A stretch of DNA of 64,000 bases from contig JAYTHY010000023.1 in the NCBI GenBank assembly GCA_043732185.1, forward strand, positions 1-64,000, in the 5' to 3' direction. The notes beneath the pieces were generated by a model. That model made no database searches. It saw only the letters and a program-made list of their open reading frames with translations, and was not told where the DNA came from. Shown in pieces: positions 16,923 to 18,013 of this stretch (position 1 is its first letter; each line of letters opens with the position of its first letter). The position numbers and the translations under genes were made by a program. Origin of the DNA: Fibrobacteria bacterium (GTDB taxonomy: Bacteria; Fibrobacterota; Fibrobacteria; UBA11236).

Positions 16923-17105
16923 ATTGGGAATATAGAAATTGAGGGTGTTGGAGTAATCCGGCCGACCAGCCAACTCAAGAGACCATGCATAAGCAAATAA
17001 CCCCTTGGGTTCTTTTGTAAAACACGCTCTTTTTAGGCCAATAACTTGGAAGAATTCCCTCAAGCCATCCACTGGATTACCGATACCTAAAAGAGGGAGC
17101 AAAAA

Positions 17106-17636
17106 ATGGAAAACCAATCGCATGCCACAGATGACCGAATCCTCGGTAGAGGGTTGTCCAACACTTCACGGGTTCGCAAAGAAATCCGGTCTTGCAATCA
17201 CCCCGCCTGCAAAAAGCGTTTCGAGGGTTCGCCGACCTCCCTTTATTGCACCGATCACCGCACCCGCAAAAGCCGTGCAGAACGATTCGTCCCCAAAGCC
17301 GTTCCCAAGCCAGAAGCGTTTAACCTTGTCATTGAACCGAGCAGCATTCAGCCTGTGCAAAAGACCATGGCATGCTCACTGCCCCAATGTGGACGCAATT
17401 ACACTTTCACCATTTATCAGGACCACAATATCTATCCCAGGTACTGCGATTTGCACCGTACCGAATACAAACGCGTGCATTTCCAAAGGATGCTGAACTC
17501 AGGACGCAAGCCAGATTTTACAGCGTCACAGTTTGAAAAATGGTCCGATTACGAAATGCAATTCGAGGAATACGCATTACTGCAACCCCATGTCGTACCC
17601 TTTCCACCAAAAAAGCCACGGGGGCAGATTCACTAG
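17106..17636 (+). CDS. Hypothetical basic protein with two C-x4-C...YC-x2-HR putative zinc fingers
   Basis: GAGGGAG RBS. Motifs CNHPAC-x12-CTDHR and CSLPQC-x18-CDLHR. Confidence 0.8.
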   Translation: MENQSHATDDRILGRGLSNTSRVRKEIRSCNHPACKKRFEGSPTSLYCTDHRTRKSRAERFVPKAVPKPEAFNLVIEPSSIQPVQKTMACSLPQCGRNYTFTIYQDHNIYPRYCDLHRTEYKRVHFQRMLNSGRKPDFTASQFEKWSDYEMQFEEYALLQPHVVPFPPKKPRGQIH

Positions 17637-17662
17637 GATTTTTTCTGGCCTATAAAGGCTCA

Positions 17663-17758
17663 GATTCGAGTAGCCGGCATAGCGCCCGGCGCACTGGTGC
17701 GGCATAGCGACCGCACCAGCAATTGAGCGGAGCGAGTCCATCTCGCTCCGCTTTTTTT
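17663..17758 (+). ncRNA. Candidate structured RNA: two hairpins with identical CAUAGCG loops followed by an intrinsic terminator
   Basis: Stems GCCGG/CCGGC (17673-77/17686-90) and CTGGTGCGG/CCGCACCAG (17694-702/17711-19), with loops CATAGCGC and CATAGCGA. Possible promoter TTCACT(17629)-N16-TATAAA(17651). Confidence 0.55.
17726..17758 (+). terminator. Rho-independent terminator
   Basis: Perfect 11 bp stem AGCGGAGCGAG/CTCGCTCCGCT, 5 nt loop, followed by a T run. Confidence 0.9.
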
Positions 17759-18013
17759 CTGCCATTTTTTCGAGATGAAACTACGGAGTTTCGATTTTAG
17801 TCATTTTTGATAGGGACGTCCCAGGATAAAATCCAAATTAGCCCCAAATTGGACACGAAAACATAAAACTTGCCCATGTTGAGCCTTTCAATATTCAAAA
17901 AATTGTCACTTTAAGCTACATTACACCGGACACGTTTTCCGAAGTCGAAACTCAGGACCATTTCCTCGTGTTTTGCCTGTTGGAACCACTTAAAAATTTG
18001 GGAATACGATAAG

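Follow-up and report, generated by a model that had tools for sequence, protein, structure and literature searches.

Twin hairpins with conserved AUAGC loops behind a predicted zinc-finger gene form a genus-limited RNA element in Fibrobacteria

Two neighboring hairpins located behind a gene for a predicted zinc-finger protein are a genuine structured RNA element that is conserved, specific to this locus and kept at the sequence level in its loops. The motif is previously undescribed and limited to one genus. It was found in a stretch of 64,000 nucleotides, which we refer to in its entirety as the window, from a genome (G000) placed in Fibrobacteria by its named relatives. Position, structure, single copy, loop conservation, stem covariation and the upstream promoter motif were all computed. 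The relevant features of the window are given below with coordinates and strand.

17060..17085, + strand: sigma28 (FliA)-type promoter, TCAAG-N15-CCGATA, 20 nt before the start of the finger gene and probable origin of the transcript with the element
17106..17636, + strand: finger gene, encoding a 176-aa protein with two C-x4-C...C-x2-H motifs and basic helices
17644..17664, + strand: extra, unconserved hairpin of the predicted fold, with no sequence equivalent in G005 or G007
17673..17690, + strand: hairpin 1, 5-bp GC stem (17673-77/17686-90), loop CAUAGCGC
17675-17688, + strand: repeat copy with the sequence CGGCATAGCGCCCG
17694..17719, + strand: hairpin 2, 9-bp stem (17694-702/17711-19), loop CAUAGCGA
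17700-17713, + strand: repeat copy with the sequence CGGCATAGCGACCG
17725..17760, + strand: intrinsic terminator-like hairpin, stem of 12 bp (17725-17753) plus U-tract
17887..18009, within 17776-18009, + strand: remnant (3' part) of a TIGR04282-family glycosyltransferase gene, 58% identical to the G007 gene over 41 aa

The sequence and its fold bear out the original prediction of two repeats at these positions, on 5-bp and 9-bp stems and with a terminator behind them. The loops of the window read CAUAGCG(C/A). In the preferred fold, each forms an AUAGC pentaloop closed by a C-G pair and followed on the 3' side by a bulged C or A. The 151 nt from 17620 to 17770 fold at -71.2 kcal/mol compared to -46.9 +/- 3.8 for shuffled sequences (z=-6.34), and none of 200 shuffles was as stable. 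The 4.46-Mb genome has 1,101 pairs of adjacent hairpins outside long ORFs, counted on the + strand of each contig, and this pair alone has a loop word of at least 6 nt common to both partners. One of the loops may have arisen by copying the other. The twin hairpins are placed between the stop codon of the finger gene and the terminator in every carrier, with repeats spaced 25-26 bp in three genomes and a linker of 3-4 nt in all three. In the extra hairpin at 17644-17664, TATAAA falls in the loop region and the 3' arm includes GCTCA.

The element is single-copy in the source genome according to blastn, loop-hairpin scans, and pattern and covariance-model searches. AUAGC pentaloop hairpins occur at 10 sites in this genome, compared to a mean of 10.9 per pentaloop, and the loop is not enriched elsewhere in the genome as competing target sites. 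Outside of the locus, the pattern stays at background or control level across 15 genomes of the genus. In 61 genomes, strong E-values for a covariance model of the twin form were confined to the four syntenic loci. Five weak matches of the same model in other genomes covered the terminator only and were rejected as noise. Scanning genome contigs for the pattern produced 12 loci, three of which are Fibrobacterota sequences at this locus. The other nine are in unrelated genomes, have no finger gene nearby and are unlike the element in architecture. A viral pattern scan returned nine loci, all within long ORFs and mostly in Met-Pro-rich repeats. The proposal of a new motif held up against Rfam 15, where no family reached its gathering threshold. 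The best match of the window was Xoo2 (21.6 bits, threshold 45), driven by the terminator, and seven related loci matched only P31 (25.5, threshold 40). The motif was not described in the literature searched on Fibrobacter RNA motifs, on AUAGC pentaloops (all viral) and on CAUAGCG hairpins (none bacterial among the matches listed); the supplements of motif surveys (PMC2864571, PMC5737381) could contain a similar uncurated motif. Surveys of Fibrobacteres were then based on two sequenced organisms plus metagenomes, as stated in the cited part of PMC5737381.

Downstream DNA was readable at 30 orthologue loci and at G007:C104, making 31 loci that include the near-duplicates L001/L002, L036/L037 and L012/L032 and the distant hit L021. 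G007:C104 was found by motif and placed by downstream synteny, and the G007 finger gene ends at the edge of another contig. The unpublished genome G011 is counted as a non-carrier (L008), as one of 27 promoter loci, as one locus for each of two paralogues, and among the ppiD and fliD starts. The twin form with its terminator is present in four genomes of the same genus, namely G000, G008 (identical element), G005 and G007. It stands behind the finger-gene orthologue in G008 and G005, and is assigned by downstream synteny in G007. Related hairpins with A-(U/C/A)-(A/U)-G-(C/A) loops, picked by eye, are found in G001 (three units, one with C at position 1), L033 and G009 (two units each), and G004 and G010 (one each). 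Units are carried by 9 of the 31 loci, with 9/19 inside the genus-level clade and 0/12 outside, and 22 loci are without. Hairpin number per locus ranges from 0 to 3. Loop position A1 is kept in 14/15 units and G4 likewise in 14/15, with hairpin 1 of G005 having A4. In a protein tree with several moderately supported branches, carriers branch near the base as well as in the crown and have non-carriers as sisters. This indicates repeated loss, as for G013 beside G001 and G003 beside G010.

Comparison among relatives indicates that the loops are held by constraint at the sequence level while the neighboring sequence drifts. Across G000, G005 and G007, which are early-branching kin, 13 of 16 loop columns are invariant (6/8 in hairpin 1, 7/8 in hairpin 2). 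Stem columns are invariant at 10/10 positions in hairpin 1, 13/18 in hairpin 2 and 21/22 in the terminator. Elsewhere in the same alignment, invariance is 2/7 in the terminator loop, 3/10 in the linkers and 1/4 in the flank, and four-fold synonymous sites of the flanking genes retain 34-47% identity among the diverged twin genomes. The pair G000 and G005 is unbiased, as protein homology, not the motif, led to G005, and its pentaloops match at 9/10 positions (binomial p=0.0004-0.006). Stem evolution preserves pairing. Hairpin 2 has two pairs changed on both sides and two G-U cells across three genomes, which is too few rows to beat shuffles (120/500 were as good). A set of 14 distinct hairpin units, hand-selected and related to each other, contains 15 two-sided cells compared to 6.2 in shuffles (0/500). 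The pair closing the loop covaries between C-G and U-A, and stems range from 5 to 10 bp. The original prediction of a structured RNA gains from the comparison beside finger-gene homologues, where twin loops are conserved and stems show two-sided changes. A single-unit model recovers 11 of its 15 training units and gave no match better than E=4 in 22 paralogue loci. The G000 paralogue has a 3' UTR that resembles the second-type hairpin, but the likeness failed in 20 orthologous loci and was rejected.

The two C-x4-C...C-x2-H motifs of the host protein are predicted to be zinc fingers. The 176-aa protein has 47 close homologues, and the wider family comprises 245 representatives at E <= 0.001. 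C-x4-C and C-x2-H are invariant across the wider family, and the first finger region is nearly invariant among homologues. The protein has no Pfam or NCBIfam assignment, a homologue has no match in the Atlas, and sequence searches produced only weak C2H2-finger matches (best E 0.003). The core is predicted with a pLDDT of 94. Its model gave no Foldseek hit at E <= 0.001 and no nucleic-acid-binding homologue, and the best fold match was an AN1 finger (Z 2.4, rmsd 7.8 over 43 residues); the absent fold match does not make the fold new. The long form of the protein occurs in 21/296 genomes of the phylum, all from one family plus one neighbor. A shorter paralogue is present in 60/61 related genomes, and no such loops are found behind its gene. 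This basic paralogue of 126 aa (L085:1985-2365; G000:C6:75484-75864, minus strand) shows 86-98% identity across the family, is also present in genomes without FliA, and in several relatives at the class level is followed by a tRNA-like gene. It may be a housekeeping protein that binds nucleic acids. A third, single-finger paralogue of 129 aa (L086:1776-2165; G000:C137) has neighbors that we take to be an Fpg/Nei-like gene and a membrane-associated gene.

The finger gene is preceded by a conserved promoter motif. CCGATA is found upstream in 27/27 orthologue loci, and in most cases T(A/C)AAG stands 15-17 nt ahead of it. The sigma28 consensus is given as TAAAGTTT-n11-GCCGATAA in the cited part of PMC2859248, and the motif upstream of the finger gene resembles the sigma28 pattern of the type TAAAG-n-GCCGATAA. 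The source genome encodes FliA (over cut-off) and flagellin-domain proteins, and the same type of promoter motif stands before a flagellin-like gene and fliD orthologues. In the sister genus g4, the long form is present in 2/12 genomes and FliA in 1/12, the latter being one of those two and a complete genome. Exceptions are G015, with FliA and without the finger gene, and G007, G009 and G028, in which FliA was not found. The finger gene might thus be regarded as a candidate uncharacterised late-flagellar gene that largely tracks FliA within the family. Given the conserved sigma28-type promoter of its host gene, the element most likely belongs to the 3' UTR of a monocistronic sigma28 (flagellar-class) mRNA of ~670 nt. 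Assembled metatranscriptome contigs provided one close contig of 341 nt with 10 differences, which covers only 17268-17605 of the ORF, so that its silence on the element is no proof either way. In two freshwater runs, DNA contigs cover the element wholly or in part with few differences. A palindrome, AACCC(A/C)TTGGGTT (16999-17011 in the window), is kept upstream of the sigma28 promoter in most loci of the genus. It lies between a divergent algH-like gene and the finger gene and could be an operator or promoter element.

We suggest that the twin hairpins are a cis-acting 3'-UTR element read by a protein, a tentative explanation to which we assign slightly less than an even chance. We infer transcription through the element, recognition of the loops by a protein, and an effect on mRNA stability. 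Situated between stop codon and terminator, the hairpins would likely be part of the 3' UTR of the predicted sigma28-driven mRNA. An RNA-binding protein would meet the same A-U-A-G-C loop on both stems, and by reading the loops it would likely set the lifetime of the finger mRNA. Conservation of the loops while neighboring sequence drifts points to a likely protein-binding site on the gene's own mRNA, and a single-copy element with only four syntenic twin loci fits a dedicated cis site. The lability of the element (9/31 loci), the wide occurrence of the finger protein, the shorter paralogue with no such loops behind its gene and the common hairpin stacks before terminators in the genus count against this explanation, as does a fold search that returned no homologue binding nucleic acids. 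The reader might be a factor other than the finger protein, which is possible without being probable. Feedback by the encoded finger protein itself appears unlikely and was rated low because the protein occurs much more widely than the RNA. Loci without the RNA keep the protein just as well conserved, so the main function of the protein cannot hinge on the element. The argument of two fingers for two loops, put forward in the original prediction, is weak given a near-invariant finger 1, a majority of loci without hairpins and a hairpin number of 0-3. It is at least as doubtful that the twin-finger protein founds a bacterial family of RNA-binding zinc fingers that read AUAGC pentaloops in the 3' UTR of their own sigma28-driven mRNA.

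The hairpins could instead be purely structural, protecting the mRNA against 3'-5' exonucleases with no specific reader. Matching loops would then stem from local duplication and be kept as intrinsically stable or nuclease-resistant. This is the most plausible alternative, even if a rather unlikely one. Multi-hairpin 3' ends are common here, including a hairpin stack before the terminator of the G000 flagellin gene and the 3' UTRs of paralogues. A structural role is also consistent with the variable number of hairpins, with a duplicated terminator-like hairpin in L005 and with the absence of the element from many close relatives. However, within the same 85 nt, divergence affected the terminator loop and linkers but neither of the two hairpin loops, and AUAGC is not a favored loop in the source genome, given the counts above. 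By eye, no such loops were seen at the ends of the flagellin gene and other putative sigma28 genes. The flagellin gene on G000:C127 (L153, 6728) has a leader in which a CsrA-like site containing GGA overlaps the ribosome-binding site.

A 3'-UTR sRNA derived from the sigma28 transcript, with CAU-containing loops acting as antisense seeds against start codons, is less probable than structural protection. The candidate target is a PpiD/SurA-like chaperone gene (G000:C96:53953), with the following site.

L155:246-256 (G000:C96:53945-53955): PpiD/SurA-like start region complementary to the 8-nt loop

The loop CAUAGCGC exactly complements GCGCUAUG, the 8 nt ending in the ppiD-like start codon, in G000, G005 and G007, the twin-form genomes in which the gene was found, and the full site is present in none of ten other genus genomes having the gene. 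The 5-mer occurs at 1/1,395 SD-bearing ATG starts in G000, and full identity at -5..-1 is rare among controls (3/50 other G005 genes, 0/33 other G007 genes). Precedent is provided by sigma28-dependent UTR-derived sRNAs in E. coli, described in the cited part of PMC10578931. However, the ppiD-like site was picked after the fact from four sites, the three genomes sharing it are early-branching kin, and CGCT-ATG (7/8) is also present in the non-carriers G013 and G011. The site is missing in G001 despite a CAUAGCGA loop there, second-type loops are without CAU, and no Hfq was found in G000 in a search that detected its positive control. A possible fliD target (8/8 with one G-U in G000) was rejected, as G008 lacks the site with an identical element. 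If the loops were antisense seeds, the element would be an Hfq-free sRNA directed against start codons.

It is improbable that the element is a separate CsrB-like sponge sRNA transcribed from a sigma70 promoter of its own. CsrB/Rsm sRNAs carry multiple GGA motifs in their loops. Loops are repeated and identical in the window as well, CsrA is encoded in the source genome (PF02599 over cut-off, one copy), and TTCACT-N16-TATAAA (17629-34/17651-56) is present in the sequence as the original prediction described, together with the GCTCA/TGAGC pairing. The proposed promoter nevertheless fails a promoter scan and has no equivalent in G005 or G007. There are only two loops, neither with GGA, and the loop is not enriched elsewhere as target sites. 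On the sense strand, GGA is confined to a site spanning the stop codon and to the terminator stem.

Slightly less probable again is an attenuator, an ANTAR-type antiterminator target or a small riboswitch gating read-through into the glycosyltransferase-cysG genes. Both loops have A1 and G4, as in ANTAR sites (cited part of PMC3369931), and a terminator with genes downstream follows the element. The attenuator of the original prediction is not upheld, since forcing the GCTCA/TGAGC pairing costs 12.3 kcal/mol and still leaves 8 bp of the terminator, and neither hairpin overlaps the terminator. The linker of 3 nt differs from the 7-40 nt given for guanidine-II riboswitches in the cited part of PMC5558903. 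The ANTAR domain PF03861 was found in 0/61 genomes, and also in 0/14 controls. Genes after the element differ among carriers. The TIGR04282 gene is decayed in the window and intact in G005, and G007 has an inserted lipoprotein-like gene. The TIGR04282 gene is intact at the same position in most relatives and truncated in L003, L009, L010, L034 and L036; a distant intact paralogue is encoded on C123. Downstream genes often have their own -10-like motif, TAnnTT, placed after the terminator and 5-10 nt before the start codon in 16/28 loci (not in the window). Loci with TAnnTT include L004-L008, L011, L012, L019, L031-L033 and L035. TAnnTT before the TIGR04282 start suggests possible leaderless transcription of the glycosyltransferase operon.

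A feature at the DNA level (REP-like palindrome, mobile-element scar or tandem site of a DNA-binding protein) is equally improbable, as GTAG before hairpin 1 in the window and the repeat spacing in three genomes stand against a single copy, a GTAG not kept in G005 or G007, and changes that preserve pairing (including G-U) and not sequence. REP/BIME repeats occur as many dispersed extragenic copies, and a check for REP-like dispersal in the source genome and relatives gave background counts only.

The element adds a structured-RNA candidate with conservation at the level of loops to an uncultured lineage having few known RNA motifs. It also connects the sigma28 flagellar regulon with a zinc-finger family that is phylum-wide and has no name. 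If the finger protein reads its own 3' UTR, feedback would operate from the 3' end of the mRNA within the late flagellar regulon, a type of control rare in bacteria. Feedback through 3' UTRs is called highly unusual in bacteria in the cited part of PMC2864571. Reading of the loops by the finger protein would also provide a new RNA-binding fold along with a compact case of such feedback. General importance is modest due to the patchy, genus-limited distribution.

Among known systems, CsrB, RsmY and RsmZ resemble the element in having repeated loops that end at a terminator, and CsrA is encoded in the source genome. The element differs in having no GGA loops and only two units, and an own promoter is unsupported here. 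The original prediction that the loop matches no known consensus stands for GGA and ACGR, and does not stand for the ANTAR signature, as A1 and G4 are present. In the cited part of PMC3369931, ANTAR targets (eut, nasF, amiE) are hexaloops with A1 and G4 on mini-stems, overlapping with the terminator. They share with the element two A1/G4-loop hairpins ahead of an intrinsic terminator. However, ANTAR mini-hairpins lie in leaders, whereas the element has pentaloops on long stable stems, lies 3' of a gene, and has a hairpin 2 that ends at 17719 and folds together with the terminator starting at 17725. The guanidine-II riboswitch (mini-ykkC) also consists of two hairpins with identical loops. The cited part of PMC5558903 describes ACGR tetraloops closed by two G-C pairs and located upstream of SugE-like or guanidine carboxylase genes. 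Here, the loops are CAUAGCG(C/A) with a linker of 3-4 nt instead of 7-40 nt, glycosyltransferases and no SugE or guanidine carboxylase lie downstream, and the hairpins are not next to a ribosome-binding site. The sigma28 UTR-derived sRNAs of PMC10578931 match the antisense explanation in stemming from the UTR of a sigma28 transcript and ending at its terminator. Hfq is a keyword of that paper, whereas no Hfq was found in G000, and the seeds here would be in hairpin loops. Closest in kind are the L17 downstream element (RF01708) and the pan motif, both described in the cited part of PMC2864571. The former is a conserved structured motif of a putative 3' UTR, with proposed feedback on the upstream gene, and the tandem simple units of the latter suggest a dimeric protein site. 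The element lacks an Rfam match, is patchily distributed in one genus and differs from both in structure, loop and lineage, and its host is an uncharacterised finger gene with a sigma28-type promoter. It shares with them a conserved motif in a putative 3' UTR in the first case and tandem simple units in the second.
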